DNA of 64,000 bases from a virus (IMGVR_UViG_3300031730_000001:25874-89873); one strand, 5' to 3'; counted from the first letter of the stretch, positions 16,347 to 64,000 are shown. The notes: a model not told the origin generated them from the letters alone. Made by a program: numbers and translations.

Positions 16347-16478
16347 GGCCGCCCTCTCGTCTACTACAGGGCGAGAGTCTGCCGAAGGTGGGCCCATCTG
16401 TCAGGAGGGCCTCGGCGACTTCATAGCGCATAACGCCTTGTGAAGCGCGCCGAGTTGACCGGGTTCGGCATTCTCCAC

Positions 16479-16510
16479 CGCTACAGAATAATGACCGTTA
16501 TCCTGTAGCG
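16479..16510. other. dif/lox-like tyrosine recombinase core site (13-6-13 inverted repeat)
   Basis: CGCTACAGAATAA-TGACCG-TTATCCTGTAGCG, one mismatch between arms, abutting the recombinase ATG. Confidence 0.75.
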
Positions 16511-42962: not shown

Positions 42963-44005
42963 CCGCGGCCCCCGACCTCGACGCCGTCTGGACGCTGGAG
43001 GACTGCGACTGCGCCATGCGGTTCCTGTGCGGTCACTGCGTCCACGACCGGTGCGAGGACTGCGGGGGCTGCTCCGGCGGCGGCCCATGCGTCTGCCCGT
43101 GCGGGATTGCCGAACGCGGCGCGTGGACGGCGATGTGGGACAGCCTGGTCGCCGACCTGTACCTGGGCACGCACATGACGTCGTGGCTGTGGGACAAGAC
43201 GCTGGAGAAACAGTTCAAGGGCGTCACGTTCTTCATCTCCCGCGTCCGGCTCGCCCCGCGACGCAGCCCTTTCCCGCGCGCCCTGCACCGTTACTGCATC
43301 GACTCCGGCGGCTTCTCCGAACTGCAGAAGTTCGGGCGCTGGAGGATCACCGCCGCCGAATACGTCGCCGAGATCCGCCGCTTCCTTGCCGAACTCGGCT
43401 ACGAGCTGTGCGTGTGGGTTGCCCCGCAGGACCTGATGTGCGAGGAGATCGTCATCCGTGGCGGCGTCGGCGCCCGTGGCCAGGTCTTCCACGGCACCCG
43501 CGAGCTGCGTGGCCTGAAGCCGGGAGATCCGGAACAGGATCTGACGACCGCGGTACGGATCCATCAGCGGCTCACCGTCGAGAACCTGGTCGAGCTTCGG
43601 AGACTCGCCCCAGAGATCAAGTTCATACCGGTGCTGCAAGGCAACCGCTTCGAGGACTACGTGCACTGCGACCAGTTGTACGCAGCGGCGGGTATCGACC
43701 TTGCTGCAGAGCCCGTCGTCGGTCTCGGCTCCGTCTGCCGTCGCCAAGCCACCAGCGAAATCCGGGAGATCGTCGAGCACTTCGCCGCCAAGGGCTACCG
43801 CCTGCACGGCTTCGGCGTGAAAACCCTCGGCCTCGCCCAGTACGCCGACGGGCTCGTCTCCGCGGACTCGATGGCCTGGTCCGAAGACGCCCGCCGCTCC
43901 GGCCCCCTGCCCGGTCACGCGCACAAAAACTGCGCCAACTGTCCCGACTGGGCGCACCGCTGGCACCGGCGCATCGTCCAGACCCACCTCACCCCCGCCC
44001 CGTGA
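42959..44005 (+). CDS. dpdA: DpdA/TGT-like guanine transglycosylase (7-deazaguanine DNA modification)
   Basis: DSGGFS, QDLMCE, PVLQG, GLGSVC, LHGFG and SADSMAW motifs. Confidence 0.8.
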   Translation: MTAAPDLDAVWTLEDCDCAMRFLCGHCVHDRCEDCGGCSGGGPCVCPCGIAERGAWTAMWDSLVADLYLGTHMTSWLWDKTLEKQFKGVTFFISRVRLAPRRSPFPRALHRYCIDSGGFSELQKFGRWRITAAEYVAEIRRFLAELGYELCVWVAPQDLMCEEIVIRGGVGARGQVFHGTRELRGLKPGDPEQDLTTAVRIHQRLTVENLVELRRLAPEIKFIPVLQGNRFEDYVHCDQLYAAAGIDLAAEPVVGLGSVCRRQATSEIREIVEHFAAKGYRLHGFGVKTLGLAQYADGLVSADSMAWSEDARRSGPLPGHAHKNCANCPDWAHRWHRRIVQTHLTPAP

Positions 44006-48400: not shown

Positions 48401-48847
48401 CGCCCTCGGCCTCCTCGGGTACGCCGCCGTCCACACCGTCCGCCACTGGCTGCGCAAGACGATCGCCGCCCGGACGTGCCCGCTCTGCGGCTGCGACTGC
48501 CGGGCCAGCACCCCGCCGCCGCGCAGCTTCAGCGACGGGGCGGCGCAGCTCATCGACCAGCTCGAACGACAGAAGGAGCAGCAGTGACCGACTGGACCCC
48601 GCCACCGCCCGGCGACCGGCGCGAGCAACTCCCGGCACATCTGCTCGCCCTCGTCAACATCCCGCCGTACACGTCGACCGCCTGCGAGATGGCGGGACTC
48701 CTCGACGCAGCCGCCGACGAGTACCAGGACCGGGCCGACGGGATCGCAGCCTGGATTGACCGGCTGCACTCCCGCTGCCGGCTCAACAACAAGTACACGG
48801 GCGCCAGTTGTGACTGCGCCTGCCACCGGGAAGGGCCCCGCCCGTGA
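45473..48847 (+). other. Run of small, often Cys-rich hypothetical genes (45473-45829, 45822-46403, 46400-46555, 46552-46797, 46794-46964, 46961-47485, 47488-48366, 48363-48587, 48584-48847)
   Basis: Continuous coupled ORFs. Confidence 0.6.
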
Positions 48848-49668
48848 CCGACAAGACCGCGCTCGGCGACCGGATGAAGCGCTACGAGGCCGCCTATCGA
48901 TCCACTCTGCCGCGCCGCACGTACACGCTGCTCCGCGTCGACGGCCGGTCCTTCCACAGCTACCTGCGCGGCGCGGCCAAGCCGTTCGACGAGGCGTTCA
49001 TGGCCGACATGAACGCGGTCGCCGAAGCCCTCTGTGCGGAGATCACTGGCAGCGTGTTCGCCTACACGCAGTCCGACGAGATCAGCATCCTCGTCACCGA
49101 CTTCGCCAGCGAGCAGACCGAGCCGTGGTTCGGAGGGGTGGTTGCCAAGCAGCTCAGCATCTCCGCCGCACTCGCGACCGCCGTCCTCAACGAGCGGCGC
49201 CCGGGGGCGCGAGCTCTCTTCGACGCCCGCGTGTTCACCCTGTCCGACCCGGTGGAGGTGGCGAACTACTTCCTGTGGCGGCAACGCGACGCGGTCCGCA
49301 ACTCGATCTCGATGGCCGCCCAAGCCCGCTTCTCCCACAAGCGGCTGCACGGCGTGAGCAGCGGCGGCATGCAGGAACTGCTGTTCACCGAAGCCAGGAT
49401 CAACTGGAACGACTACCCCGGCGGCTGTAAACGCGGCCGGATCGCCGTCCGGCAGGTCGGGGAGCGGGCCGTCGAGTACGTCGACAAGCGCAGCAACGAG
49501 ACGGTGAACACCATCGCGGTCCGGTCGTGGTGGGAAACCAGCGCAGCCCCGCACTTCACCACCGAGCCGGGCTCGTGGCTGGCCCGCACAATCCCGGCGC
49601 TGCCGACTCTTCAGACGGCGCCCGCAGTCACCTGGACCTACACCAGCGACCCGCAGCCCGCGCGATGA
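48844..49668 (+). CDS. thg1: tRNA(His) guanylyltransferase Thg1-like protein
   Basis: RMK.YE, RVDGRSFH, YTQSDEIS, FDARV, WRQ.DA.RNS. Confidence 0.92.
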   Translation: MTDKTALGDRMKRYEAAYRSTLPRRTYTLLRVDGRSFHSYLRGAAKPFDEAFMADMNAVAEALCAEITGSVFAYTQSDEISILVTDFASEQTEPWFGGVVAKQLSISAALATAVLNERRPGARALFDARVFTLSDPVEVANYFLWRQRDAVRNSISMAAQARFSHKRLHGVSSGGMQELLFTEARINWNDYPGGCKRGRIAVRQVGERAVEYVDKRSNETVNTIAVRSWWETSAAPHFTTEPGSWLARTIPALPTLQTAPAVTWTYTSDPQPAR

Positions 49669-49787: not shown

Positions 49788-50504
49788 TTGGCGATCTTCG
49801 GCAAGGACAACTCTGATCTCCTGCACCAGATCCTGCGAGAACTCGGCGAACTCCGTGAACGCGTGACGGGCCAGCAGCAGGCCATCGAGCAACTCCGCGG
49901 CGACACCGGCGCGACGCTCAACACCGGCCTCGCCGAGACCCGGGCCGTCGTCCGTGACGGTCTCCAGCGGCATCAGGAGATGATCGGCGAACCGCTCAAC
50001 CGGATCGGCGGCGAACTGGTAGCCATCCGCAATGGCGTCAACGATCTCGGCCGCGAACAGCCGGCACCTACGCAAGCCGCGGCCGAGCCAGATCGTGAGG
50101 TAGCCGACCAGGCGCCCGCGGCCATCAGCGACGGACTCCTGCGCGCTGCTGCCGGCATCTCGCGCGCCAAGCTCCAAGCGCACCGCGACACGTGGGCGTT
50201 CCTCGTCGAACACGCCATCCACGACCGGCACTTCCGCATTCCCGGCGAAGTCCAGGACGCCGACGGTGCTGTCACCGCCTACGTCTCCGGGCCCAGCCTC
50301 GTTGCCGCCGTCACCAGTCTTCACGACGTCAGCCGCACCAGCGACAGCCCCGTCACCCGCGCCATCGCCGGCCACCTCCACGACCGGCTCACCGAAACAG
50401 TGCAGGCCATCATCAGCGATCCGCACCGCGGCGACGGAGCCGACGAAGTCGCCATCGTCATCGACGACCGGGCGAAGACGGCAGACGACGAGCCGAGCGA
50501 CTGA
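49788..50504 (+). CDS. Hypothetical protein (coiled-coil N-terminus), stand-alone
   Basis: 238 aa, GAGGGG SD, flanked by hairpins. Confidence 0.65.
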   Translation: MAIFGKDNSDLLHQILRELGELRERVTGQQQAIEQLRGDTGATLNTGLAETRAVVRDGLQRHQEMIGEPLNRIGGELVAIRNGVNDLGREQPAPTQAAAEPDREVADQAPAAISDGLLRAAAGISRAKLQAHRDTWAFLVEHAIHDRHFRIPGEVQDADGAVTAYVSGPSLVAAVTSLHDVSRTSDSPVTRAIAGHLHDRLTETVQAIISDPHRGDGADEVAIVIDDRAKTADDEPSD

Positions 50505-50692
50505 ACACGGCAGGCCCCGACCCATTGCGGGTTGGGGCCTGCCCGCCTGCCGCTTTCGCCTCGCGCGCGCACGCACTAAGGCCGGGCCTGCGGCCCCGCG
50601 TATTTTGCTGACGCGGAAGCGGGAGTTTTTTACCTGCCGTATTAGGTCACCCGTCTTATAAAAGACCCGCCAGTCGCGAGCCCCCTCAGTCG

Positions 50693-51085
50693 TCAGTCCA
50701 CCCACTGGCCAACCCCTCCGTGGGTGCCATCCTGGTTATGTCCGTTTTGGGGCAGGCCGTAGAAGGCGAGCGTCGTTATGAATCCGCCAGCCCCTGGCTG
50801 CCCCTTGGGAATCCGCGAACGAGTCCGAACCAGGTAGCCGAACTTCTCCAACTCAGTGAACGCGGCGTGGATGGAGCGCCGGCTCTCCGCACCCGGACCA
50901 CGTTCCCGCTTGCCCTGGGCGGCCAACTCGTCCGCCGTGGCCTGCCACCCCGGCGGACGAGCCATGATCTCCGTGAGCAACTGGCGGGCCAGCCGCGTCA
51001 GTCGCCCGTCGAACACGGTCTCGTTGGCCATCTGTACGAAGTTCTTCGACAGCTTCGGCCGGTGCACCACCATCACCACTCGCAT
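50693..51085 (-). CDS. Winged-helix protein (initiator N-terminus-like)
   Basis: FVQMAN...LT..AR.LL.EI...P.GW...LA...ELEKFGYL. Confidence 0.7.
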   Translation of the reverse strand: MRVVMVVHRPKLSKNFVQMANETVFDGRLTRLARQLLTEIMARPPGWQATADELAAQGKRERGPGAESRRSIHAAFTELEKFGYLVRTRSRIPKGQPGAGGFITTLAFYGLPQNGHNQDGTHGGVGQWVD

Positions 51086-51215
51086 GCCCCTGTCTGGCAG
51101 GCGCGAGCGCGGGTCGGTACAGTCAACGTGAACTCCTCAGGTTGCGCGGGCAGTCACCCGCCGATCGAGACGGCCGGGCGGGACGCCACATCCCACCGGC
51201 CGTTGCTGCGTCCGG

Positions 51216-51524
51216 TCACTCCCCGGACAGGTATCCGTGCTCTTCGAGCTCGGCGATCCAGCCGCGAATTTCGTCAATGTCTTCGGTGGGGTGCAGCTCC
51301 GCCAGGCCCTCCGCGTCGATGTCCCACGAACCGCCATGCGCCAGGATCTCGACGAGCAGGCCGCGTGCGCCCAGGCTCAACCGATAGTCCTGGATCCATT
51401 CGACCGGCACGGCCGTGTGCCCTTCTGGCACTTGGTCCGGGCTGTCGACGATCGGCGGTCGATGGACGACGTGGATCGGGGCGTCCCAGGGGAAGTAGTC
51501 GTCTTCGTCCAGAGGCCCGGTCAC
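51216..51524 (-). CDS. Winged-helix protein, paralog of 50693..51085
   Basis: VVHRP...LSLGARGLL.EIL....W.....LA...ELEEHGYL. Confidence 0.65.
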   Translation of the reverse strand: MTGPLDEDDYFPWDAPIHVVHRPPIVDSPDQVPEGHTAVPVEWIQDYRLSLGARGLLVEILAHGGSWDIDAEGLAELHPTEDIDEIRGWIAELEEHGYLSGE

Positions 51525-52282
51525 TGGGGCGGCCGGTTGTACTGAGCGACGGTCGCCTGATTCGTTGATGCATCCTGAAGTCGCAGCTCCCAGGGTCCGG
51601 TGTTGACGTCCATGTCTTTCCCGAAGCCGGTCCACTTGCCGGCCATCCGCGTCCCGGTCGGCTCGACGAGCATCTGGATCGCACCGTGATACCGGGCGCC
51701 GCGGTAGTAGCCGTCTTTCGCGGTGGTCTCGACCCAGGTTCCGGTGACGACGCTGCCGTCCACGGTGAGGTCCATGGAGAGTGGCGAGTTGGCGTTCGAG
51801 CATCCCTGGGGCGTGGAGTGGACGCTGAGGCGGTTGCCATGCTGAAGGACGACGACGTAGTGCTGTCCGACGAAGCTGGAGTCCCTGCCGCTGGAGAAGT
51901 ACTCGTATCGCGACAGCCAGACTCCTGAATAATTGGCGCGCGCCGAAGTCTGAGGCGTAGGCCCTGGCCTCGGTGCGGCGATACCTTCGAGGGAGGGGTG
52001 TACGTCGTGGCCGCCCGACCCGTCGTCGGCGACGCGGGCCATTACGGGGTTGGTGAAGCCGAGGGAGTCGATGGGCATTCCCGTGACAACTTCGAGGGCT
52101 CGGGCGTATACCGGTCGAGGTGCAGCGGTAGTGCCGGACTCCCAGCGCTGGACGAGGCGCTTCGTGGCGTCGTTGGGCTGGCCAGCGCCCTCGCCGGCCT
52201 CTTTGATGGCCTTCGCGAACTCGTCCTGACTCAGGAGCATGCTCGTTCGGACCGCCCGCAATGTGGCGTTTGGTGTGGTCAT
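51521..52282 (-). CDS. XRE-family regulator with C-terminal beta-rich domain
   Basis: LRAVR..MLLSQDEFA...VQRWESG; C-terminal SGVW...TGTW...GKW. Confidence 0.78.
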   Translation of the reverse strand: MTTPNATLRAVRTSMLLSQDEFAKAIKEAGEGAGQPNDATKRLVQRWESGTTAAPRPVYARALEVVTGMPIDSLGFTNPVMARVADDGSGGHDVHPSLEGIAAPRPGPTPQTSARANYSGVWLSRYEYFSSGRDSSFVGQHYVVVLQHGNRLSVHSTPQGCSNANSPLSMDLTVDGSVVTGTWVETTAKDGYYRGARYHGAIQMLVEPTGTRMAGKWTGFGKDMDVNTGPWELRLQDASTNQATVAQYNRPPQ

Positions 52283-52429
52283 GTGACCACGGTAGCGGAA
52301 CGCAGCGCCCAATGACACCGGTTTGACGCCCCCTGTGGGAGTAGAGCGACGCCAAGAGTGACGCCGCGCAACCATGCTGTGCGGCGCCACTGTGTCTTCA
52401 TGACGGATCACGGAACATCGCGTGACGCC

Positions 52430-52642
52430 CTACGGCGTCGAGGGATCGTCGCCCTCGGCCGTCAGGACGATGCGGCGGACCTGCTGGCGCGTGTAGCCGG
52501 TCGCCTCGCAGATGTCCTTCTGGGGCAAGTCGTCGTCGTCGGCAAGCCTGATGGCTGCCGCGAGCTCCTTACGCAAGATCTCGGTTCGCGCCTTGGCTGT
52601 TCTGTAGCGCTGCGCGAGCTGCTCCAGTGATCGCTTATCCAT
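52430..52642 (-). CDS. Small HTH protein divergent from the transfer operon
   Basis: QKDICEATGYTRQQVRRI. Confidence 0.72.
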   Translation of the reverse strand: MDKRSLEQLAQRYRTAKARTEILRKELAAAIRLADDDDLPQKDICEATGYTRQQVRRIVLTAEGDDPSTP

Positions 52643-52684
52643 GACGCGCAGTGTTCCATCCTCCAGCAATGTGACAGTAGGCAT

Positions 52685-52761
52685 GGAACGTGACGTTACG
52701 CGAACAAACTAAAATTGCCTAGGTCTAGCGCTTGACGCAGGGAACATCGTGTTCCTAAGGT
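52685..52761 (+). promoter_or_regulatory. Promoter with two GGAAC-N5-GTT(C/A)C operators
   Basis: TTGACG(52732)-N18-TAAGGT; palindromes at 52685 and 52741. Confidence 0.68.
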
Positions 52762-52866
52762 GGAGCTCGTTGGTAGGGAAGCCGCCAACAAAACGGCCCC
52801 GCCCGGTGCTGAGAACACCGAAGCGAGGCCTAGGTCAGACGCCCTACCCAAAAGGGAGACCGAACC

Positions 52867-53277
52867 GTGACGACCACAGTACAACCGCCGGCTTCTGCCG
52901 GACCCGAGACCCGCATCGTCCCCGCCCTGATCGACAGCCAGCGCGTATTCCTGGAATGCCCGATTTGGTGCACCATCGATCATGTCCGGGAAAATCAGAA
53001 GTTCCTGGTCGATGTGTGGCACTCCGGAAACTTCGCCGACCTGGAGGCCCCCCGCAGTAGCGGGATCCCCGACCTCCTCGCCTACGCCCGCCTCGGCATC
53101 GACCCGTTCAGCAGCGACGAGACCATGCGCCGCCCCTTCCTCTTCGTCGAGGACGGCAGTAGCGCGAAGGGCTCCTACCTGGACGCCGACAACGCCGAGA
53201 AGTTCGCCGACAACCTCGTCGCCTTCGCGGAGAAGATCCGGGCGATGGGGCGCGTACTCAAGGCGGCGACGGCATGA
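52867..53277 (+). CDS. DUF6907-like protein
   Basis: CP.WC..DH......D..H...A...AD.L. Confidence 0.6.
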   Translation: MTTTVQPPASAGPETRIVPALIDSQRVFLECPIWCTIDHVRENQKFLVDVWHSGNFADLEAPRSSGIPDLLAYARLGIDPFSSDETMRRPFLFVEDGSSAKGSYLDADNAEKFADNLVAFAEKIRAMGRVLKAATA

Positions 53278-54528
53278 GTACCCCCACCCCGCAGTTCCAC
53301 TACGCGTCGATGCGCAACGCCGAGCAGTCGGCCCGCAGCATCTCCGTGCAGTTGTCGGTGCGCGGTTTCCTCGCCAGTCTCGCCGATGAGACATCGGCCG
53401 CCGAGTTCGCCGAGTTGAAGGCGACCCGCACCAGCTACTACCTGCTGGCCCTGGCGCACCGGAACGCGGCCCGCCGGCTGGAGCGCGGGCAGCGCATCCG
53501 GTCCCGCGCCGAGCGGATCGTTCGGACCGTCGCCCGTGGCGCGCTTCGAGTCCGCCGGCTGGTGACGGTATGAGTACCGTCCATTCCACCGCCCCGGTGG
53601 TTGCGGAGCACCGCCGTATCGAGCGGCTCGTGTCCGGTCTGCGCGCCGGCGAGTCGACGGTCATCAACGGCACGCCGGTGACCGCGATCAGCCTGGCGAC
53701 CGCGGACCTTCTGGAGCGGCACGCGTCGGTTGACTTCCACTTTCGCCAGATGTCTGCCATTGCCGCGACGGAGGGGGACTTCGACCGGCTCCTCGCCGTA
53801 CAGGACGAGCTGCTGATGTGCCGCTGCCAGTTGGACGCGGCCGGGATGCTGCACCTCGTCGAGGTGACGGCATGAGCCCCGCCGACCGTCTCGCCCATGA
53901 GCTGGGGTCCTACGTCCGCCGCCCGGCCACCCCGGTCGCCTCCGACGATCACGCCAAGACGAAGGACGCGTTGCCGCAGTGTCCCCGCGGCCCGCATCCG
54001 CAGACGGCAGGTGCGTGATGGCCGTCGACCGTAAGGCTGTGATCGCCGAGGCGATGCGCCTGCTGGAGTCTGGCAAGTCGTCCGGCCTGGAGGGTGCGAG
54101 CCCGCTGGCCGTCCACGACCGGCTGGAGCGTGGCGCCGACGGTACGGGCCCTGGCGGATTCGCGGCGTTCAAGACGGCGCAGCGGATCGTCGCCGAAGGC
54201 GGTGCATCGTGAGCGCACGCAAGGTCCTCGCCACCACACAGGCCTCCCATCCGCGCGGTTCTTGGCCCGCGGAGGAGCAGGCGCAGCAGTTCCGCGACCA
54301 GGGCATTCCGGCGACTGTCGTGCAGGACATCCGTACCGACCGGTTCCTGGTTGTGGTTCCGGACGGCGGCGACCAGTGATGGCGCTCCCCGTGGCCCTGG
54401 TGACCCAGGCCCAACACGGTCTCGCCGCCAGGCAGTTGGCGGAGCAGGCCCGGCAGCACATGGAGGCCGCGAAGGCGGCAGCCGTCGCCGCCGAGGCCGC
54501 GCGACAGGCCAAGGTGTGTGGCCGGTGA
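53274..54528 (+). other. Small coupled hypothetical genes (53274-53573, 53570-53875, 53872-54018, 54018-54212, 54209-54379, 54379-54528)
   Basis: Coupled overlaps. Confidence 0.6.
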
Positions 54529-55130
54529 TGAGCTGCTGCACCGACTGCCGTAAGGGCGTGACGGGCAAGCTGCGCAGGGCGCGCTGCGAGTCCTGCTACC
54601 GCAAGTTGCTCTCGCGCCTCAAGCAAGAGGGTTCCTTCGTCCCACTGAAGCGACGAGCCATGGAGCATCCAGGAGGGCGGGTACTGCGTGGCGTTGCGAA
54701 GGACGCGAACGGCTGCTGGCTATGGACGGGCCCTGTCGACATGAACGGATATGCCCGGTGCTGGCGCGAAGGAGGGCGCACCGGTGCGCATCGGGCGGTC
54801 TACGAGTTCCTGGTTGAGCCCATACCTGCCGGCGCAGAGCTTGACCATCTATGTCACACACGCGACGAGGAGTGCGCTGGCGGGCGGGACTGCCAGCACC
54901 GCAGGTGCGTGAACCCCGAGCACCTGGAGCCGGTGCCTGGATCTGTGAACAACGCTCGCGGCAACGGTCCGGCAGCGCTCAACACCCGCAAGACCCACTG
55001 CAGTCGCGGCCACGAGTTCACCTCCGAGAACACGTATTGGCAGCCAAATGGGGGCCGCAAGCCCTCCCGTCGTTGCCGGGAATGCGATCGCCTCAAAGCG
55101 GCGCGCTATCAGTCGGCCCGGAAGTCCTAG
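54528..55130 (+). CDS. HNH endonuclease, paralog of 29892..30536
   Basis: CWLWTG, AHRAVYE, DHLC..RRCVNPEHL, KTHCSRGH. Confidence 0.88.
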   Translation: MSCCTDCRKGVTGKLRRARCESCYRKLLSRLKQEGSFVPLKRRAMEHPGGRVLRGVAKDANGCWLWTGPVDMNGYARCWREGGRTGAHRAVYEFLVEPIPAGAELDHLCHTRDEECAGGRDCQHRRCVNPEHLEPVPGSVNNARGNGPAALNTRKTHCSRGHEFTSENTYWQPNGGRKPSRRCRECDRLKAARYQSARKS

Positions 55131-55235
55131 ACCAGCTGCGCTGACGGGGATGACACCGAATCCCCCGCGGCCCCCGTCAGCGCGGCTTTCCACCCCCGCA
55201 CCACTCACCGTTCCCGCCATCTTGAGAGGTTCGCC

Positions 55236-56252
55236 ATGCCTTCTACCGTCCAATCCGACGCCCAGTCCGCTCCGGAGTCGGCCTCCATGGACCTGTTCTG
55301 GGTGATGACCGTCCAGACGGCCGACGGGCGCGTCAACACCCGGACCGCCGTGATCACTGCCCCGGTCGGCTTCAAGCGCTCCCAGGCCTTCGAGTACGTC
55401 TTCGCCCAGTTCAAGAAGGACTACGGGAGCCCGCTCACGGTCCTGTTCTTCGACCTCCAGCTGAACGAGTTCTGACTCACCCCCACGTTCTCTGCGACCT
55501 GAAAGGTCCCGCCATGTCTCCGTTCCTGTTCTCCGCCGATCACGCCACGTTGACGGGCGGCGCCGACCGCGCGCTGGCCCTGGTGCCGACGGCGCTGTCG
55601 ATCTCGGACCTGTTCGCCGAGTACGCCGCCGCCAGTAAGGCCCGGCGGGCGGAGATTCGACTCGCCGCCGACCCGGAGCTGCTCGACGAGCTCGACGGCT
55701 TCAACTACCTGGCCGCGGCCTAACCCCCTGATCGCCGGTCGCGGGTCATCCCCCGTCTCGTGTCCGGCTCGCCGCGCTGGCGGGCGTCAACGGCTCCCCT
55801 CCGTTCCGCCAGCGCGGTCCAAGCCCCTACCCCTGGCCCTGCCGGGGACCGCATCGCCTACACGGTGCGGTGCCCAGCACGACCGGCACCACCACATCCA
55901 TTCACCGAACCGAAGGAACACCCATGTCGAAGGAAATCGATCGCAGCAAGGTCGTCGAGGTCCGGTCCGCCGGCGAAACCGTCTATCGGGCGGTCGGCGG
56001 CGACGGCGTCACCACGTACAAGACGCCCGAGCGGGCCGCCGCCTCATCCGACCGGCAGGACGCCTACAGCAAGGCCATCGGCCGCACCAAGTAGCCCCAG
56101 CCCTCATCCCGTACCCCCCCGAGAGGAGCCCTGTCGTGCCCACCAACCCGGAGACCGGCAGCGAACTCGCCGTGAAGGGCATCGACGGCCGGTTCGCCGA
56201 GGCCGTCAAGGGCTATCGCGGCTACAGCGCCGGCCAGTTGCGGAGGGTCTGA
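55236..56252 (+). other. Small hypothetical genes (55236-55475, 55514-55723, 55924-56094, 56136-56252)
   Basis: Each has an SD-like sequence. Confidence 0.55.
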
Positions 56253-56255
56253 CCG

Positions 56256-56630
56256 ATGTCGTACCACGGCCAGCTTCCGACGGCGATGTTCAACGACGGG
56301 CAGATCCGTGCGAAGGAGTTCGCGAAGTGGCGCCACTGTCACGACGCGTTCCGTCGCGGAGAGCGCCGGCGGATCGTCGACCACTACAAGGCGGACATCG
56401 TCGGCCGTGGCGGGCTGCCGAAGCCGATCTGGCTGGACGTCGACGACAAGTACGGCCGCGTGTACCTCGGTGACGGTCACCACCGTGCGGTCGCCCTGAT
56501 CGAACTGGGTGTCGCTCAGTTCGACTTCCACTGGCGGCTGGTTTCCAAGGGCGGCTGGTTCAGTCAGCCCCCGCTTGAGTCCGGCCCGTTCCCCTACCGC
56601 CTGCTCGGTTTGCCCCGGGCTTCCGCCTAG
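56256..56630 (+). CDS. ParB/Srx-like N-terminal domain protein
   Basis: GLPKPI.L......L.DGHHR..A...LG. Confidence 0.72.
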   Translation: MSYHGQLPTAMFNDGQIRAKEFAKWRHCHDAFRRGERRRIVDHYKADIVGRGGLPKPIWLDVDDKYGRVYLGDGHHRAVALIELGVAQFDFHWRLVSKGGWFSQPPLESGPFPYRLLGLPRASA

Positions 56631-56647
56631 ACCGAAAGGAGTTCGCT

Positions 56648-57172
56648 ATGCGTCTCGTCGAGTACCGCCTCCCGCGCCGCTACCGCCCGGTCCTGGACCG
56701 TGTCGACCTGGTGATGGACGAGGCGGCCCGCATGATCGGCCGGCGCGAGCGGGGCGGTCTCGGCGCCGTGGAGGTGGCCGTCACGGTCACCGACGGCATC
56801 CCGGATCTGATCTGCGCCGCCCACCGGCAGCTGTTCGGGCGTAGCGACTGGGATGCGTGGGCCGGCCCGGGACGTCACGGCGCGGCCACCCTCAATCGGG
56901 CCGGAACGCTGGTCGTGATCAACGCCCAGTCGCTGCTGGGCAGGCAGGCGGAGATCGACAAGACGGTGCTGCATGAGCTGAAGCATGCCGCCCAGTTCAA
57001 CCGGCCCGGCGCCTGGGCGTCCGCGCGTAAGGGCATCGCCTTCGACTTCTACGACATCGGCTGGATGACCGACAGCGAGCTGCGGTCGTTCGACCGCCGC
57101 ATCCAGCGCGACGAGCGGGAGGCCGAGGGCGTCGAACGACTCCACCGGCAGCTCGCCCAAGCCGTCGCCTGA
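56648..57172 (+). CDS. Zincin-like metallopeptidase domain protein
   Basis: VLHELKHAAQ followed by EREA. Confidence 0.65.
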   Translation: MRLVEYRLPRRYRPVLDRVDLVMDEAARMIGRRERGGLGAVEVAVTVTDGIPDLICAAHRQLFGRSDWDAWAGPGRHGAATLNRAGTLVVINAQSLLGRQAEIDKTVLHELKHAAQFNRPGAWASARKGIAFDFYDIGWMTDSELRSFDRRIQRDEREAEGVERLHRQLAQAVA

Positions 57173-57195
57173 CCACCCCAAACCAACCGAAAGGA

Positions 57196-57396
57196 ATGAT
57201 CCACATGAGCAACGAAAACCGGACGGATCCGCGCGAGCTGATCGCCCGACGCCTCCAGCAGGCAGGCCGGACTGTGGCCGGCGAGCGCGGATCGCGGGCG
57301 GCGAACGCCGTATCCAGCGCGATCGGCTGTGGGCGCATCGAGATCTGCGACGACCCGAACTGCCTCAACTGTGCGCCCGTCCGCGAGGAGAACTGA
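57196..57396 (+). CDS. Hypothetical protein
   Basis: AAAGGA SD; Cys-rich end. Confidence 0.5.
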   Translation: MIHMSNENRTDPRELIARRLQQAGRTVAGERGSRAANAVSSAIGCGRIEICDDPNCLNCAPVREEN

Positions 57397-57401
57397 CCGT
57401 C

Positions 57402-57605
57402 ATGCCGATCACGTTCCGCAAGAGCTTCCAGATCCTGCCCGGCCTCCGGGTCAACATCAACCGGCGCAGCGTGTCGTGGACGCTCGGCTCCGGCAACGGG
57501 CCCCGGTATACGCGCAGTTCGACCGGCCGGCGCACCACCTCGATGAATCTTCCCGGCGGCTTCGGCTGGAGGAAGACCACCACCCGACGTAACCGAGAGG
57601 ACTAG
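57402..57605 (+). CDS. DUF4236-like small basic protein
   Basis: FRKSFQILPGLRVNI...S.T.G...LPG.G. Confidence 0.7.
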   Translation: MPITFRKSFQILPGLRVNINRRSVSWTLGSGNGPRYTRSSTGRRTTSMNLPGGFGWRKTTTRRNRED

Positions 57606-57777
57606 CTCATGCCCACCGACGGCAAGCCCAACTGCTGGATCTGCGGCGAGCCGGGAGCCGTACCGGAACGGACGCTCCTCGGCTTCAAGAAGCCCATCTG
57701 CCCGCCGGGCGCGGGCTGCTCCCGCAGCAAGACCACGAAGTAGTCACCCGCCGAACCTCGAAAGGAAACCGATCACC

Positions 57778-58866
57778 GTGAGCAGCTGGTCCGAGGAGCG
57801 TCGCGCCGACAAGGCCGCCGACGCCGCCGAGCGCCGCCGCACCGACGAGCACCGGGCCCAGCTGCGTCGCGACGAGCGGCGCAAAGACCGCGACGAGGCC
57901 CGCGAGGTCAAGGCACAGGAGCGCCGCGACAAGACCGCCCGCCGGCAAGCCCGCGCAGCCCGACGGGAGAAGACCCTGACTGCGGCCAACGTGTACCGCA
58001 AGGGCACCCTCGCCTTGGTCGCAGCGTCCGCGCTCGCATCTCTGCCCGCGCAGGTCATGCACTTCGTGTCGATCAGCCTGATCCTGCTGCCGCTGCCGTT
58101 CGCGCTGGAGGGCGCGGCCTGGGTGATGGCTGCCGGCGTCGCCTACGCCGATGAGCGGAAGCTGCCCGCGTGGGTGCGCTGGCTGCTGCGGGCCCTGTCG
58201 ATGGGCGCGGCCGGCTATGCCGCCCACATCAACTACGAGTACGGCTCGCAGACCAACGCCTCGGTGGCGTGGGGTCTGGCCGGTGTCACGGTCATGGGCC
58301 CGGCGGTGTTCGAGATCCGGCAGTGGGTGCACACCCTGTCCGCTGCTGCGGTGGACCCGAAGAAGCGGGCCGAGGAGAAGGCCCGTGCCGCCCATGCCAG
58401 GAAGCGCAGCCGCCACCACGGCGACGTGGTGAAGCTGGCACGGAAGTTGGTCTCTGCCGCCCCCTTCGGTGTGCTGGCTTTCGAGGAGGCGTTCGTGTCT
58501 GCCTGGGAGATTCTGTACGGCACGCGCACCCCGGGCATGACCCCCTCCTTGCACGCTCAGGCGCACGCCTCGCGTAAGGCGCTGGCGGCTGCGTTCGACA
58601 CCGCCAACGGCTCGCCGGTGAGTAATCGCGCGCGCCTCCTGGAGCTGCTGCACCCGGCTCCGGTGAAGGTACTCGGAGTGCCCAAGAAGTCGCAGGTGGT
58701 TACCGATCTCCCCCCCTCCCCGGTGAAGCCCGGCAAGGCGGCCCGCAGGAAGCCCCCCGAGCACCGCCGCACCCCCGGCGACAGCGTGCCCTTCCACCCC
58801 CTCGCGAAGGTCGCCGCCGCAGACACCGCACACAAGCACATGGCCGTCAACGGCCACCACAACTGA
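57778..58866 (+). CDS. SpdB/DUF2637-like multi-TM plasmid spread protein
   Basis: Charged coiled coil, about four TM helices (LP..LEG, A..N..., P..FE), basic C-terminus; upstream of traB. Confidence 0.55.
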   Translation: MSSWSEERRADKAADAAERRRTDEHRAQLRRDERRKDRDEAREVKAQERRDKTARRQARAARREKTLTAANVYRKGTLALVAASALASLPAQVMHFVSISLILLPLPFALEGAAWVMAAGVAYADERKLPAWVRWLLRALSMGAAGYAAHINYEYGSQTNASVAWGLAGVTVMGPAVFEIRQWVHTLSAAAVDPKKRAEEKARAAHARKRSRHHGDVVKLARKLVSAAPFGVLAFEEAFVSAWEILYGTRTPGMTPSLHAQAHASRKALAAAFDTANGSPVSNRARLLELLHPAPVKVLGVPKKSQVVTDLPPSPVKPGKAARRKPPEHRRTPGDSVPFHPLAKVAAADTAHKHMAVNGHHN

Positions 58867-58908
58867 CCCCGCCCGAACGACAACCAGCCCACTCAGGAGA
58901 GAGAAGCC

Positions 58909-59487
58909 ATGAACCCCACCATCCGCCAGTTCGCCGTCTCGGGCAGTGCGGCCGTAGCCCTCCTCGGAGGCGCCGCAGCCATCACTACCGTGGCCGCGCC
59001 GTCCGCGTCCGCCGCCGAGCAGGCCACCGTCACTCGCGCCGCCACCGCACCCGTGCAGATGCCCGACGGCCGTACCGTCCGGATCACCGGCATGGGCGGC
59101 TACGGCCACCAGGCCACCGGCGCGCACATCGCCACCGTCGCCGCGTTCGAGACCGACACCAGCCCCGGTGTCGGCTCAGGCCTCACCCCCGACGGCGGCG
59201 CAGGCGCAGCCATCGGCAACCCGGTCACCGGCACCCAGACCGGCTACAACCAGCAGGTCACCACCCAGGCCACCGGTGCCGGCGTCGCGACCGGTGTCGT
59301 CGCGATCCTCGTCCTCGGCATCATCGTCTTCTTCAAGGTCAAGCACGGCCACGTCAAGGCCATGGACGCCGTCGTCGTCGCCCTGTTCGGGATCGCCATC
59401 TCCGGCACGGTCATCGGCGGCATGGGCGGCTCGCTCACCAACTCCCTCGTCGGCTCGATGGGCTCCATGCTCAGCGGCCTCGGCTAG
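58909..59487 (+). CDS. Exported/membrane protein of the transfer module
   Basis: Signal-peptide-like N-terminus (ASA); two C-terminal TM helices (ILVLGIIVFF..K..DAVVVALFG). Confidence 0.6.
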   Translation: MNPTIRQFAVSGSAAVALLGGAAAITTVAAPSASAAEQATVTRAATAPVQMPDGRTVRITGMGGYGHQATGAHIATVAAFETDTSPGVGSGLTPDGGAGAAIGNPVTGTQTGYNQQVTTQATGAGVATGVVAILVLGIIVFFKVKHGHVKAMDAVVVALFGIAISGTVIGGMGGSLTNSLVGSMGSMLSGLG

Positions 59488-59548
59488 CCACATCTCACGG
59501 CGGCGCCCACCCGGGGCGCCGCCCCCGACCCCAGGAAGGAACCCGGCC

Positions 59549-61729
59549 GTGGCCACCGAAGCCCAGCCCGACATGGAGAAGCAGCCGACCGAGGCGGCCA
59601 CCGAGCCCACTCGCGGCGACCGCATCAAGGCCGCGTTCGCCGTGCAGCGTGGCCACGTCAGCGCCCGCACCAAGGACTGGCTCGCCACCGGCGACCTCGA
59701 CGAACTCGACATCCTGCAGCTCGCCGCCGAACGCAAGCAACGCAAGCACAACGAGAAGATCGTCCACCAGAACCGGATCGTCGCCGAAGCGCACGGAAAC
59801 CTCTACAACGCCAAGCTGCAGGCCGAGAACGGCGACGGCGGCAACGGTGCCGTGTCGCGTCTGGGAGGTCGCGTGGCTGCGGAAGAGGCCAAGCTCGCCG
59901 CACTCCAGAACACAATCGTGATGCCTCCGACCGACCGTGAGATCAACATGGTCCGCCACACCAAGAAGGCGACCCGGGGCGCCATCCTCGCTGGCGGCGG
60001 CCTCGCATCGCTGCCCATGCTGGGCACTGCGATCGAGATGACCGCCAACGGTCAGCCGCTCATCCTCGCCGCCCTCGGCACGGCCGCCGGCTACGGCTGG
60101 TACCTGGTCTCGCGCCCTTTCGTCGACGGCCAGCCTGCACCTGCCCCGAGCATGGAGACGCAGCTGGCCGCCCCGGTCGACATGGTGAAGACCGAGCAGC
60201 CGGGGATGCGGGAGTTCAACGCCCCGCCGCCGCCCGCGTGCACCGTGCCGCAGCTTGAGGAAGCCCTCCGCAAGATCGGCATGGTGAAAGGTGACGAGCA
60301 GCTCGCGATTCTCGCCGTGCCGCAGCGGGAGAAGGACGGCAACACCACCGTCGTCTTCGACCTGCCCGCAGGCCAGACTGTCGCCAAACTCCAAGACAAG
60401 ATCGAGGTGTTCGCCGGCGCGATCGGCCGCGACTCCGCCATGGTCGACATCGAGAAGAAGGGCAGCGCAGTCCGCACCAGCCTGTGGATCGCCGACCAGG
60501 ACCCGTTCGAAGATGTCCGGCCTTCACCGCTCCTGAAGAAGCCCACCCAGTTGGACGCCTTCAAGGACGGCGTGCCGGTCGGCTGGGGCAAGCGGGGCAA
60601 CACCATCCTGCTGCCCATCAGCACCTCCAACACGGTGATCGGCGGCACGACCCGCTCCGGCAAGGGCGTCGGCGCATCCAACCTGGTCGTCGGCGCCGCC
60701 TTCGACCCGCGCATCAACCTGCGGATCATCGCAGGTAAGCAGAACGGTGAATGGGACGCCTACGCCAAGGCCGGAGTCGCATCCACCTACTTCAAGCCCG
60801 ACCCGGACAGGCTCGTCGCCCTCCTGGAAGCCGAGATCGCCGACAAGAACAGGCGCGAAGTCGAACTCGGTCGCCTCGGCAAGAGCAAGCTCGTTGCGCC
60901 CGCCATTGAGCAGATCGGCGGCATTGAGCTGATCGTGATCGACGAAGGGGCGACATACACCAGGTCGAAGAAGCATCGCCGTGACGAGATCATGGAGAGG
61001 CTGGTCCTGCTCGCGTCGGTTGCCGCTGGTGCAGGCATCCTCATCGTCTTCATCACGCAGTACCCGAACGCCGACGTCTTCCCGAGCGAACTCGCCGTCA
61101 ACTTCACGACCAGCTGGGCGATGCGCGTCGACAATGCGGAGCAGTCGAACGCCATCCTCGGCAAGGGCCAGTCGGGCATGGGGCGTGACGCCTCCAAGTT
61201 CGATCCGCCGCGGCCCGGCCTCGGCTGGCTGGTCAATCCGTTCGCGGGGATCACCGACAAGGCCCGCAGCTTTGACATCGACGAGGACGACCGCAGCGAG
61301 ATCACGATGCTGCTAGAGAAGGCGGCGAAGATCCGCGAGAAGGCGGGCCGGCTGGCCGGGCAGTGGGACGACCCGATCGAGCAGCACCTCCTCAACGCCA
61401 CCGGCCTGTCGTCGGCAGCCGGCGGCCCGAAGCGGGACGGCATCCCGGGCCGGAACGTCCTCAACCACACGCCGGAGCAGCGCATGCAGATGGACGCGCT
61501 GCGCGGCTGCCTCGTCGCGATGAACGACCTCGGCCGGGATGTGGCGCAGCTCGACGAGATGGCCCAGGTCATCGGCGGCGGCATGGCGGAGGAGCGTCTC
61601 GGCGAGTTGCTTCGAGCGGCCGGGGCCGGCGGAACGGTCAAGGTCACGATTCCGGGGTTGCGGAACCGCGTGAACGGCTACAAGCGGGCGGACATCGCCG
61701 ACGCGCTCGAACTCCTCGAAGGCAACTAG
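59549..61729 (+). CDS. traB: TraB-like FtsK/SpoIIIE DNA translocase
   Basis: Two N-terminal TM helices, Walker A GGTTRSGKG, Walker B LIVIDE, TQYP, C-terminal wHTH-like end (GYKRADI). Confidence 0.82.
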   Translation: MATEAQPDMEKQPTEAATEPTRGDRIKAAFAVQRGHVSARTKDWLATGDLDELDILQLAAERKQRKHNEKIVHQNRIVAEAHGNLYNAKLQAENGDGGNGAVSRLGGRVAAEEAKLAALQNTIVMPPTDREINMVRHTKKATRGAILAGGGLASLPMLGTAIEMTANGQPLILAALGTAAGYGWYLVSRPFVDGQPAPAPSMETQLAAPVDMVKTEQPGMREFNAPPPPACTVPQLEEALRKIGMVKGDEQLAILAVPQREKDGNTTVVFDLPAGQTVAKLQDKIEVFAGAIGRDSAMVDIEKKGSAVRTSLWIADQDPFEDVRPSPLLKKPTQLDAFKDGVPVGWGKRGNTILLPISTSNTVIGGTTRSGKGVGASNLVVGAAFDPRINLRIIAGKQNGEWDAYAKAGVASTYFKPDPDRLVALLEAEIADKNRREVELGRLGKSKLVAPAIEQIGGIELIVIDEGATYTRSKKHRRDEIMERLVLLASVAAGAGILIVFITQYPNADVFPSELAVNFTTSWAMRVDNAEQSNAILGKGQSGMGRDASKFDPPRPGLGWLVNPFAGITDKARSFDIDEDDRSEITMLLEKAAKIREKAGRLAGQWDDPIEQHLLNATGLSSAAGGPKRDGIPGRNVLNHTPEQRMQMDALRGCLVAMNDLGRDVAQLDEMAQVIGGGMAEERLGELLRAAGAGGTVKVTIPGLRNRVNGYKRADIADALELLEGN

Positions 61730-61753
61730 GCGAAGCGGTATGCACCGCTTTGC

Positions 61754-61868
61754 CCCGGACAGTCCAGGGTGAAATGTGACATTCACCCGGACTGTACCCC
61801 GGACGCTCGCCCCGTCGCCCCGGACAGCACCCGGACGCGACCCGGGTCACGACCACCCGCCGTCCGGG
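61754..61868 (+). repeat. clt-like locus: clustered CCCGGAC repeats
   Basis: CCCGGAC at 61754, 61786, 61798, 61819, 61830; inverted copy at 61862; directly downstream of traB. Confidence 0.7.
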
Positions 61869-61938
61869 GGTGCGACTGGGTGCAAATTATCGCAAGTCCA
61901 CCCGACAAAGCTACGTAAAAACGACAGGAGATCCACTC

Positions 61939-63042
61939 ATGCCCAAGACCTGGCAGCCCGGACGCAGGGGCGTCCGTGAGCTCACCCGCTTCATCTCGGA
62001 GAACGGCAAGGGCGTCACCGTCTACACCGTCTCCCAGCAGGCCCTCAACGCGGCGCCGTGGGAGGACGCCAAAATGTGGGTCGCCCGCACCTTCGACTGG
62101 CGCTCCCCGATCACCGGCCACTGGATGACCGGGCACCTCTCCGTCGAAGGACTCTTTGCGCAAGAGGGCACCGTCTACGAGCAGCCGCCCCGCGGCATGC
62201 GCGAACTCGGCAGCCCCGGACGTCAGGTCGCCGGCCCCGTCGGCCACGGCGACTACAGCGCCTATCTCGACGACTCGGAGATCCGCGGACTGCAGAAGCG
62301 GGTCCAGAACGGAAGCGACCCCGCGACCCGCCCCAGCCGCGGCGAACGCGGACGGCGTCGCTGACGAAGCCCACCCATCCTCAACCGATCAAGGAGAAGT
62401 CCATGCAGTACACCCACCGCTCCGTCCAGGACTACGTCGCCGCGCTTCTTCGCGGCGACCGCGCCACCACCGACCGCATCGTCCGCGAAGTGACCGCCCG
62501 CTTCGACACCCGGAAGACCGACGGCAGCGAAGCCGCCGAACTCCTCGACGCCACCATGCCCGTCCGCTTCGCCGAAGGCGGCTGACCGTGGCGAAGACGA
62601 CCGCCCGCTACGCCACCCCTGGAGGCGGCACCGTCACCCTGCACCAGGGCGGCATGCTCGCCGCACTTGCAGGCAGCGGCGCCTGGTACGAGTGCACCGG
62701 CTGTGGACCCGGACGCTTCAAAGTCACCAACTGGTCGAACGAAACGCAGTCCGACCTCGTCGACTACGACGGCACCGAGCAAGCAGCCGAACAGCACGGC
62801 ACCACCTGCCGCCGCATCCCCCAGTAGCCCAGCCAGCCAAGGAGACCCGAATGACCGACAAGCAGCGCCTCTTCGAGACCGCCGTCCGCGACGCCGTCGT
62901 CGTGCTCACGATCATGCAGCAGAAGACCTTCGAGATCGGACCCGCGTTCGCCACAGCCGACGCCAGCACCGACAAGGCGAAGGCCGTCGGCTGGACCCTC
63001 GAACAAATCGAGGCCGAAGCCAAACGACGCGTCGGCGCCTGA
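61939..63042 (+). other. Hypothetical genes (61939-62364, 62403-62585, 62588-62827, 62851-63042)
   Basis: AGGAG-type SD sites or close spacing. Confidence 0.6.
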
Positions 63043-63132
63043 CTCAGCCGGGGCGCCCCTTCCCGCCTGGCAGCAAAGCAGGGGCGCCCCATCCACCCAC
63101 CACGCGCGAACGCGCAGACAGGCAACGCCCAC

Positions 63133-63645
63133 ATGACCACGACCATCCTTGCCCCGGCAAGCCCGCCCCCCGCCCTCGACCTCGACGCACGAATAGCGCT
63201 CCGCCTCGCCCTCATGAACGAACGCCTCAACGAAGCCGCCGTCGCCTTCGAGGTCAACACGGCCCACATCGAATCCGCCGAGCCCGTACCGGCGATCAGT
63301 TCCGTCGTACCGCTCACCCCCACCCTGGCGCCCGCGCCCAGCCCCTACGAGACGCCTGTCGCCGCACTACTGCACCGGGCCCGCGTCCGCATCGAAACCT
63401 ACGGCTGGGCCCGCCAGCTCCGCGACGACCAAGCCATGGCCCGCTGCCCCGGCGGCGCCATCCAGATCGAAGCCTCCACCAGCAGCGACGACGCCAGCGC
63501 GCGGCGGCTCCTCTTCGAAGCCATCGAGCGCGACTTCCCGCAGGCGGAGTCGATCCCGTCCTGGAACGACGCACAGGCCGGGCCGCGACTTCCGCTGCTC
63601 TACCTCGAACGTGCCGCGCAACTCGCCGGCGCCCGCGGCCTCTAA
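63133..63645 (+). CDS. DUF6197-like protein
   Basis: L.RA...I...GW.....C..GAI...IPSWND...L.RAA. Confidence 0.6.
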   Translation: MTTTILAPASPPPALDLDARIALRLALMNERLNEAAVAFEVNTAHIESAEPVPAISSVVPLTPTLAPAPSPYETPVAALLHRARVRIETYGWARQLRDDQAMARCPGGAIQIEASTSSDDASARRLLFEAIERDFPQAESIPSWNDAQAGPRLPLLYLERAAQLAGARGL

Positions 63646-63735
63646 CCCAACCCGAAGGAGCACGCTCATGGCACGGATCCTCACCAGCGAGCCCGACGGC
63701 GTCATCCGCATGGCCCCCGGCAATGCGATCGGGCA

Positions 63736-63948
63736 ATGACCATGGCCAGCCTCAGGGAAACCGCAGTCGCCCTCAACGTTGAGTACGAGATGAGGCGACG
63801 CGCCGGAGCGCCCACCGACGACTTCCTCACCAAAACGGTCGTCCCCGCCACCAAGCGGGCAGTCGCCGCCGGCGCCGACTTCGACACCATCCAGGCCGAC
63901 GCCGACCGCGAGTTCGGGCAGTGGCTCATCGACAACGCCGGAAGGTAG
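63736..63948 (+). CDS. Hypothetical protein
   Basis: 70 aa ORF. Confidence 0.45.
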   Translation: MTMASLRETAVALNVEYEMRRRAGAPTDDFLTKTVVPATKRAVAAGADFDTIQADADREFGQWLIDNAGR

Positions 63949-64000
63949 GGAGATTCGTCATGGGATTCCTGGAACGCCGCGCCACCCGGGCCTGGCATGA

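Follow-up and report, generated by a model that had tools for sequence, protein, structure and literature searches.

A putative TraB-type DNA transfer cassette in the genome of a temperate tailed Streptomyces phage

Introduction

Can a tailed temperate phage of Streptomyces carry, as a part of its own genome, the machinery with which Streptomyces plasmids transfer double-stranded DNA between mycelia? The question is raised by the virus record IMGVR_UViG_3300031730_000001, a single sequence of 89,873 bp, of which bases 25874-89873 form the 64,000-nucleotide stretch analysed here and termed the window; positions below are those of the window unless the record is named. A preliminary description had proposed an apparently complete conjugation module at 52685-61868, consisting of Spd-like proteins, the translocase TraB and a clt locus. 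The part that is demonstrably common to plasmids begins at 57778 rather than at 52685, and the cassette considered here accordingly extends over 57778-61868, with genes for an SpdB2-like protein, a 144-residue protein and TraB, followed by a repeat array. This segment is probably a working Streptomyces-type double-stranded DNA transfer and spread cassette of the phage. The grounds for this reading are homology, fold, the repeat array, conservation and the position of the cassette inside phage genomes, and we infer DNA binding, pumping, the timing of expression and transfer itself from plasmid systems.

The TraB-type translocase

The central gene of the cassette (59549-61729, plus strand) codes for a protein of 726 amino acids, characterized by PHROG profiles, BLASTP, tblastn, AlphaFold and Foldseek, and sequence motifs. 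The protein begins with a helical region and continues with two weakly hydrophobic helices, an FtsK-type alpha/beta motor and, at its C-terminus, a winged-helix-like domain. The profile phrog_1358, named "FtsK/SpoIIIE-like", matches at 2.5e-31 and the motor has the FtsK fold, in keeping with the FtsK/SpoIIIE ATPase described earlier at this position. A Walker A motif (GTTRSGKG) is found at residue 366 and a Walker B-like motif (LIVIDE) at residue 461. A chromosomal FtsK is ruled out as the identity of this protein, since the Pfam family FtsK_SpoIIIE (PF01580) reaches 16.7 bits, under its cut-off of 24, and neither FtsK_gamma nor FtsK_alpha matches at E <= 0.01. The TraB protein of plasmid pSG5, in turn, shares 28% identity with the phage protein over 431 residues (pairwise BLASTP, E 3e-37), and a tblastn search of 72,556 plasmid records matched 63 of them (E 3e-26), 55 of which are from Streptomyces.

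The AlphaFold model, calculated from a 45-sequence alignment, has a predicted local distance difference test score (pLDDT) of 84.2. Its top matches in the PDB, as found by Foldseek, are the FtsK motors of P. aeruginosa and E. coli (6t8o, 2iut and 2ius; E ~1e-14, ~410 aligned columns, TM-score to target 0.60-0.66), and the next are the coupling protein TcpA of pCW3 and EssC/EccC. The two helices preceding the motor, at residues 144-188, show Kyte-Doolittle peaks of 1.48 and 1.23 and are modelled at a pLDDT of 51-59. The assignment of the predicted product of 59549-61729 to the TraB-type translocases of Streptomyces is solid as judged from these comparisons.

The C-terminal 94 residues (633-726) were also modelled alone (pLDDT 88.3), and their topology is helix-helix-helix-strand-strand-helix. 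The best VIA-align match is the winged helix of Rex (Z 6.7, rmsd 2.8 A over 70 residues), followed by MarR, IscR, ORC/Cdc6 and others, winged helices making up most of the 50 rows listed. Both the topology and these matches speak for a putative winged-helix end, as had been proposed earlier, but Foldseek gives no match for it at E <= 0.001. When the C-terminal 117 residues were compared with the 72,556 plasmid records by tblastn, just a 27-residue stretch in CP042280.1 was found, and the recognition domain can therefore be linked neither to that of pSVH1 nor to that of another plasmid. The ratio of non-synonymous to synonymous substitution rates (dN/dS) of traB is 0.30-0.39 in all seven pairs formed with full-length homologues, three of which come from portal-bearing records, and all frames are intact.

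The repeat array and its covariation with TraB

The gene is followed by a clt-like array (61754-61868, plus strand) that consists of five direct copies of CCCGGAC, one GACCCGGGTC variant and one inverted copy. The six CCCGGAC copies within these 115 bp, the first of them 25 bp past the traB stop codon, compare with an expectation of 0.06 (Poisson P ~4e-11, or ~2e-8 when corrected for 556 windows), so that the clustered repeats reported earlier behind the ATPase gene are well borne out. The total for the whole window, 31 copies, is at chance level (30.3 in shuffles), and any other 150-bp segment of the 89.9-kb record holds at most two. The array also contains inverted repeats and has strong structure, its RNA fold giving a z of -4.6 relative to shuffles.

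Passages of PMC3583192 and PMC4447253 describe clt loci as short direct repeats, often accompanied by inverted ones, which are recognised by the cognate TraB, and in the former the clt loci of pIJ101 and pJV1 are given as direct plus inverted repeats. The recognition sequence of pSVH1 TraB is GACCCGGA, as stated in an excerpt of PMC5133688; the repeats of the phage array have its CCCGGA core in common, and three copies match it in seven of eight bases.

The 220 nucleotides past the traB stop were surveyed for motifs in 26 sequences, namely the window and 25 further loci. In 17 of the 26, three to six copies of CCCGGAC follow traB, where ~0.1 would be expected, and the remaining nine loci group by their TraB sequence. 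Two of these (L036 and L037) have CCCGGAA in six and four copies, together with a C-terminal wing that reads KVKI.D.W.. instead of KVTIPG..RVN. Three others (L007, L040 and L009), with a TraB identity of 49-57%, have repeats of the CGAGCAG type in three to six copies, and GGGTGGA occurs in three to four copies in L029 and L032. The repeat motif thus tracks the TraB subtype, which is the pattern predicted by a specific pair of protein and site, and of the arguments for taking the repeats to be a clt this covariation is the strongest.

Two observations may be added on the variants. In L036 and L037 a change of one base in the motif accompanies the different wing sequence of TraB. The motifs CCCGGAC, CCCGGAA, CGAGCAG-type and GGGTGGA may moreover be viewed as a natural specificity series for recognition of clt by TraB.

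Directly 3' of the traB stop, and ahead of the array, minimum-free-energy folding and an inverted-repeat search place a hairpin, GCGAAGCGGT-ATGC-ACCGCTTTGC, at 61730-61753 on the plus strand. It is possibly a terminator, and was not called as such by the terminator scan.

Membrane partner proteins

Two membrane proteins had been noted ahead of the ATPase gene, and hydropathy agrees with both. The first (57778-58866, plus strand; BLASTP against SpdB2 of pSG5, hydropathy) is an integral membrane protein of 362 residues that is charged at the N-terminus, hydrophobic in the middle and conserved in its C-terminal domain. For SpdB2, some four transmembrane helices and an N-terminal coiled coil are characteristic; in the phage protein the N-terminal 70 residues are charged, the hydropathy profile has one strong (1.82) and one weaker (1.39) peak, and more hydrophobic stretches can be made out by eye at residues 75-185. 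Its BLASTP match to the 404-residue SpdB2 of pSG5 has 33% identity over 125 residues (E 1e-15). In the pSG5 record (NC_008792.1) this 404-residue protein is encoded two genes upstream of traB, at the end of a run coding for proteins of 151, 80 and 404 residues, a run named spdB3-orf80-spdB2 in a passage of PMC11600335. The match, taken together with this naming, identifies the predicted 362-residue protein as an SpdB2 homologue. Thirteen Streptomyces plasmids were matched by it in tblastn, some of them with the annotation DUF2637.

The second is a Gly-rich protein of 144 residues with two predicted membrane helices (59053-59487, plus strand; Kyte-Doolittle peaks 2.69 and 2.16). No family match was obtained for it in Pfam, PHROG or ncbifam, and ncbifam returned nothing for any of ten cassette proteins; its identity to a gene that adjoins traB on a non-phage scaffold of S. 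triticiradicis is 57%. The earlier claim of Spd-like proteins in the plural is to be reduced to one demonstrable SpdB2 homologue.

The phage genome and the place of the cassette in it

A gene call of our own, based on the G+C content of third codon positions, gives 149 genes on the full record, the G+C content of which is 65-71% throughout. Bases 1-243 and 89631-89873 of the record (the latter being 63758-64000 of the window) match over 243 bp with one mismatch, so the unit is ~89.63 kb long and either circular or terminally redundant. The repeat itself may be a genuine terminal one, or it may stem from the overlap of a circular assembly, and IMG/VR classes the record as linear. CheckV puts its completeness at 95%.

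The 25.9 kb that precede the window code for an HNH protein, terminase genes, a portal of the SPP1 type (PF05133, 1.2e-48) and head genes, and the start of the window codes for a tape-measure protein of 1655 residues (PF10145, 2.1e-45). The head and terminase genes expected in the preliminary description are thus present, but they lie before the window on the same contig and not beyond position 64000. Further on are a Xer-like tyrosine recombinase (16511-17551; PF00589 at 2.2e-26, with a SAM-like N-domain), an integrase of 434 residues (22771-24075, minus strand; PF00589) adjoining the immunity region, a Bro/ANT antirepressor, RecT, an exonuclease and a C5 methylase. The replication initiator is of phage type (phrog_3171, 1.7e-52). 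As to the Rep with iterons that had been suggested, an iteron search of 13000-16600, the one region scanned, found scattered repeats of low identity and no array. ParA and ParB had no family match among the 60 proteins scanned of the 149 called. The close protein relatives are all from Streptomyces. With terminase, portal, tape measure, recombinases and early genes, the record is, as judged by its predicted gene content, a complete temperate tailed (siphovirus-like) Streptomyces phage. The protein at the position of the large terminase (549 residues, record 15122-16771) has no Pfam match at E <= 0.001, and the gene at the same position of a provirus in S. nymphaeiformis is 61% identical to it.

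Is the cassette then a part of this genome or a guest in it? The longest direct repeat that flanks it measures 15 bp, tRNA genes are absent from the window, and the only PF00589 recombinases found, those at 16511-17551 and 22771-24075, lie at least 35 kb away, in agreement with the earlier remark that no att site or integrase separates it from the phage genes. A search of IMG/VR with a profile of close TraB homologues gave 24 records with a TraB relative of 49-81% identity, of which 11 are classed as provirus and one has direct terminal repeats. An SPP1-type portal exceeds the Pfam cut-off in 14 of the 24 and a tape-measure family in eight; PF04860 (Phage_portal), searched for in the ten records that lack the SPP1 portal, exceeds it in five of them. 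Altogether 20 of the 24 have a virion hallmark, that is, a portal or a tape measure over the Pfam cut-off. As to the other four, two are fragments (55% and 68% complete), one is 93% complete, and one is 94% complete with a sub-threshold portal match.

The arrangement is likewise conserved. Each of the 14 SPP1-portal records has traB on the strand of the portal gene and 5-23 kb upstream of it, two of the records needing a circular reading, and the present genome has the same layout with a distance of 18.8 kb. The S. nymphaeiformis provirus has 33 of the 149 called proteins in common with the phage (terminase 61%, portal 55%, capsid 70%, tape measure 50%, methylase 68%, replication initiator 70% and TraB 54% identity), and its traB is located between the replication and the packaging genes. 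A separate actinomycete integrative and conjugative element (AICE) inserted into a phage was rejected on account of the missing att-like flanking repeats, tRNA and integrase and of the internal position of traB in this related provirus; misassembly was rejected because 14 of 14 IMG/VR records with a portal repeat the arrangement of the present genome. To the question whether the putative transfer cassette is a conserved, integral part of the phage genome, the evidence says yes.

The nearest whole-genome match to the cassette is nevertheless to be found elsewhere, on an 88.6-kb scaffold of S. triticiradicis with a TraB of 72% identity and 13 of the 149 proteins in common, these being confined to the cassette and several small genes. 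Since this relative sits on a non-phage scaffold, the cassette is, by this comparison, one that moves between element types. The scaffold was rejected as a sister phage on the basis of its RHS protein, TrwC relaxase, ABC transporters and helicase and of the 13 of 149 proteins in common. On inspection the scaffold (NZ_WBKG01000042.1, 88,635 bp; loci L013-L017) codes for a TrwC-type relaxase, an RHS/YD-repeat protein, three ABC transporters, an LPG synthase and a helicase, and combines a TraB-type system with a relaxase.

Comparison with known systems

The closest parallel in gene order is plasmid pSG5 (NC_008792.1; spdB3-orf80-spdB2-orf73-traB), where, as in the phage, a membrane protein gene, a small open reading frame (ORF) and traB follow one another. 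Homologues of TraB and SpdB2 are common to both, and the TraB of pSG5 has been studied experimentally; the ORFs flanking traB in pSG5 (73 and 141 residues) show no similarity to those flanking traB in the phage. The pSVH1 region (traR-spdB3-spd79-spdB2-traB-clt) likewise has short direct and inverted repeats by traB, with the common CCCGGA core of GACCCGGA. The carrier differs, being a 12-kb rolling-circle plasmid in the pSG5/pSVH1 type and a ~90-kb tailed phage here, and no homologue of the GntR-type TraR, of SpdB3, of Spd79 or of SpdA was detected in the phage, the scan for TraR covering 30 proteins encoded at 52.4-63.9 kb.

A Streptomyces plasmid-phage, pZL12, was reportedly described by Zhong et al. 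in 2010 (J Bacteriol 192:3747). Like the present genome it is a Streptomyces tailed phage of about 90 kb (pZL12/phage ZL12, GQ919031; 90,435 bp as against ~89,630 bp), and according to a passage of PMC3583192 an FtsK-like tra gene and adjacent genes are needed for its conjugal transfer. Its backbone is unrelated, however, with tblastn matches for seven of the 149 called proteins, and neither the FtsK-like pZL12.71c nor the membrane protein pZL12.73c has BLASTP similarity to the phage TraB or to the SpdB2-like protein; pZL12 was rejected as a close relative on these two counts. It also has ParA and ParB, which were not found among the 60 phage proteins scanned. The phage, unlike pZL12, has an integrase by its immunity region, and 11 of its 24 relatives are integrated proviruses.

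An AICE resembles the phage in that a tyrosine integrase, a replication initiator and a single FtsK-like Tra protein reside on one integrating element, the three modules by which AICEs are defined in an excerpt of Ghinet et al. 2011 (PMC3218068). These elements are 9-24 kb in size and devoid of virion genes, whereas the phage encodes terminase, portal, capsid and tape measure, and its integrase and traB are ~35 kb apart. The motor fold of TraB, finally, is that of chromosomal FtsK/SpoIIIE. FtsK has a C-terminal DNA-recognition domain that reads short oriented repeats (FtsK orienting polar sequences, KOPS), a logic that is proposed here for TraB too; unlike chromosomal FtsK, the traB described here is phage-borne and flanked by a gene for an SpdB2 homologue.

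SpdB2 homologues occur on some actinophages and have been proposed to aid the spread of phage DNA, as mentioned in part of Thoma et al. 2015 (PMC4447253). The concept is thus not new, given the precedents of pZL12 (2010) and of the actinophage SpdB2 homologues (2015), and the contribution of the present case is its breadth across prophages and the covariation data rather than a first sighting. In our literature search, which left subscription journals mostly outside its reach, integrating tailed prophages were nowhere described as having a conserved TraB/clt cassette.

Proposed function and alternatives

In the mechanism proposed here TraB would assemble as a membrane-associated, hexameric FtsK-like pump, the C-terminal winged-helix domain of which would dock on the CCCGGAC repeats downstream of its own gene. 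The motor would then drive the phage genome, as circular double-stranded DNA, through hyphal contacts or septal cross-walls, with help from the SpdB2-like pore protein and from the small membrane protein with two helices. Besides being packaged normally, the genome could in this way get into adjacent compartments or mycelia with no need of virions. That phage DNA may move between hyphae as naked DNA, without virions, is a reasonable proposal by analogy with the plasmids. A broader proposal can be advanced more tentatively, as a possibility that falls short of being probable: integrating tailed prophages of Streptomyces would be dual-mode "conjugative prophages", forming virions and also pushing their excised double-stranded genomes through hyphal contacts and cross-walls with their own TraB and clt. 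They would number at least 20 among the IMG/VR records and belong to two portal lineages or more, and co-evolution of wing and clt would keep the pump of each phage specific for its own DNA.

Several results weigh against transfer by the cassette. No relative of TraB was detected by tblastn in 50,697 deposited phage records, where near-identical records may have been hidden; it is thus not known from any isolated phage that forms virions, and the prophages that have it may be defective. The transmembrane anchor attributed to TraB at the outset is represented by two N-terminal helices, but these are weakly hydrophobic. The VIA-align Z of 6.7 for the C-terminal domain falls below the confident range of the tool, and FtsK gamma is not among the 50 rows listed. 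Two of the 26 loci (L027 and L030) have no clear repeat after traB. The 362-residue protein has no match to DUF2637, or to any Pfam family, at E <= 0.01. A scan of 30 proteins encoded at 52.4-63.9 kb gave no repressor of the GntR type, such as TraR or KorA, which leaves the control of a potentially toxic traB unexplained, and the sole regulator found in this region is a helix-turn-helix (HTH) protein of 84 residues encoded 5 kb upstream. If traB is under a prophage repressor, its expression may be limited to lytic growth, which would fit spread better than stable conjugation.

This last point leads to the most serious of the alternatives, in which the cassette acts within one mycelium: after infection or induction, phage DNA would cross the cross-walls and lysogenise or infect the whole mycelium, with no mating between strains. 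Plasmid TraB and Spd proteins are known to drive intramycelial spreading, and it is for the spread of phage DNA that the actinophage SpdB2 homologues have been proposed (both in passages of PMC4447253). In 14 of 14 relatives with a portal, moreover, the cassette belongs to an early or middle gene run that directly precedes the packaging genes, a position suggesting expression within the lytic programme, and the missing plasmid-style TraR among the 30 proteins of 52.4-63.9 kb points the same way. Against this, TraB alone suffices for inter-mycelial transfer in plasmids, as part of PMC4447253 has it, and a functional pair of TraB and clt should therefore also mate. Sequence alone cannot separate intramycelial spread from mating, and confinement to one mycelium is considered somewhat unlikely.

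A role in vertical inheritance would have the FtsK-like pump and its docking site clear or segregate phage or prophage-plasmid DNA at sporulation or vegetative septa, perhaps with the Xer-like recombinase. It could draw on the FtsK fold of the TraB motor and on the presence in the same genome of that recombinase (PF00589 at 2.2e-26, with its SAM-like N-domain), but 11 of the 24 relatives are integrated proviruses, which need no separate segregation, the scans detected neither ParAB (60 proteins) nor an FtsK gamma family, and the closest homologues sit in plasmid transfer regions, all of which makes this role improbable. The disfavoured and least credible alternative is that of passenger DNA from a plasmid or AICE with no transfer function for the phage, or of a separate element or assembly artefact, for which the nearest cassette relative on a non-phage scaffold (TraB 72%), the movement of the cassette between element types and the lack of a TraB relative in 50,697 deposited phage records (tblastn) might be quoted, as against the intact frames with dN/dS 0.30-0.39, a position kept in 14 of 14 portal-bearing records across two portal families, a repeat motif that tracks the TraB subtype, and an internal traB in the related provirus with no att-like repeats, tRNA or integrase at the flanks.

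Should the preferred reading, transfer and spread by the cassette, be correct, temperate Streptomyces phages would gain a second route of spread that needs no virions. Such a route would escape receptor-based resistance and leave the donor alive, and it would blur the boundary between prophages and AICEs. Chromosomal DNA could be mobilised too, since clusters of the TraB recognition sequence on the S. coelicolor chromosome are held to account for chromosome mobilisation (in an excerpt of PMC5133688). The system is easily tested: a single pump gene, a single repeat array and a single membrane partner make it up, and in natural variants the motif and the TraB wing change together.

Neighbouring genes and further observations

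All called genes at 52867-63948 are on the plus strand, with several gaps of 140-760 bp between them. The divergent gene for the 84-residue HTH regulator (52430-52684, minus strand; PF13384 HTH_23 at 1.6e-5, 25.0 bits with a cut-off of 24.6) precedes this long run, of which its product may be a repressor. A promoter-like TTGACG-18 nt-TAAGGT, read from the sequence and to be taken as a lead, stands at 52732-52761 on the plus strand; its spacer contains a perfect palindrome, GGAACAtcgTGTTCC, at 52741-52755, which at zero mismatches is unique in the window. A consensus promoter scan returned no promoter-like site in 50500-64000, and TTGACA-N16-18-TANNNT had no match in the window. With no consensus site in the region and gaps of up to 760 bp, the single operon under one promoter that the preliminary description had assumed is unproven.

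The first gene of the run codes for a DUF6907 protein of 136 residues (52867-53277, plus strand; PF21848 at 1.2e-21). Just upstream of the cassette, small plus-strand genes at 56256-57605 code for proteins of 124, 174, 66 and 67 residues, analysed by motifs, PHROG and Pfam profiles and tblastn. The 124-residue protein (56256-56630) has a ParB/Srx-like DGHHR motif and a weak ParB-like match (phrog_1033 at 1.2e-3), and the 174-residue protein (56648-57172) has HELKH, a metalloprotease-like (HExxH) motif; both are kept in the S. nymphaeiformis provirus (48% and 32% identity by tblastn). The 67-residue protein belongs to DUF4236 (PF14020 at 2.8e-15). For the genes of 52867-57605 (DUF6907, DGHHR, HExxH, DUF4236 and small ORFs) no link to conjugation could be demonstrated.

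Downstream of the array, at 61939-63948 on the plus strand, are genes for proteins of 141, 60 and 63 residues, a DUF6197 protein (63133-63645; PF19698 at 2.8e-12) and a protein of 70 residues. These genes accompany traB in non-phage elements too, and matches to the S. triticiradicis scaffold among them have 47%, 62% and 57% identity. Paralogs in both parts of the window had been claimed for DUF6197 and HNH proteins. DUF6197 does occur twice (28937-29251 and 63346-63621), but the HNH family (PF01844) has a single copy, which lies outside the window.

A DNA search with 57700-61900 gave zero matches in deposited phages, where near-identical records may again have been hidden. The record CP042280.1, deposited as a plasmid of Streptomyces sp. 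WAC08241 (92,592 bp; loci L001, L009 and L012), has a second entry in IMG/VR, where it counts as a virus of 100% completeness. A tape-measure family is matched in it, its TraB relative is interrupted by a frameshift or by a TGA in frame, and the element may be a phage-plasmid whose traB is either broken or wrongly sequenced. Amid the early genes of the phage itself are a homologue of DpdA, known from 7-deazaguanine DNA modification (42959-44005; PF23859, 2.1e-70), and a homologue of the Thg1-like tRNA-His guanylyltransferase (48844-49668; PF04446, 1.7e-21).

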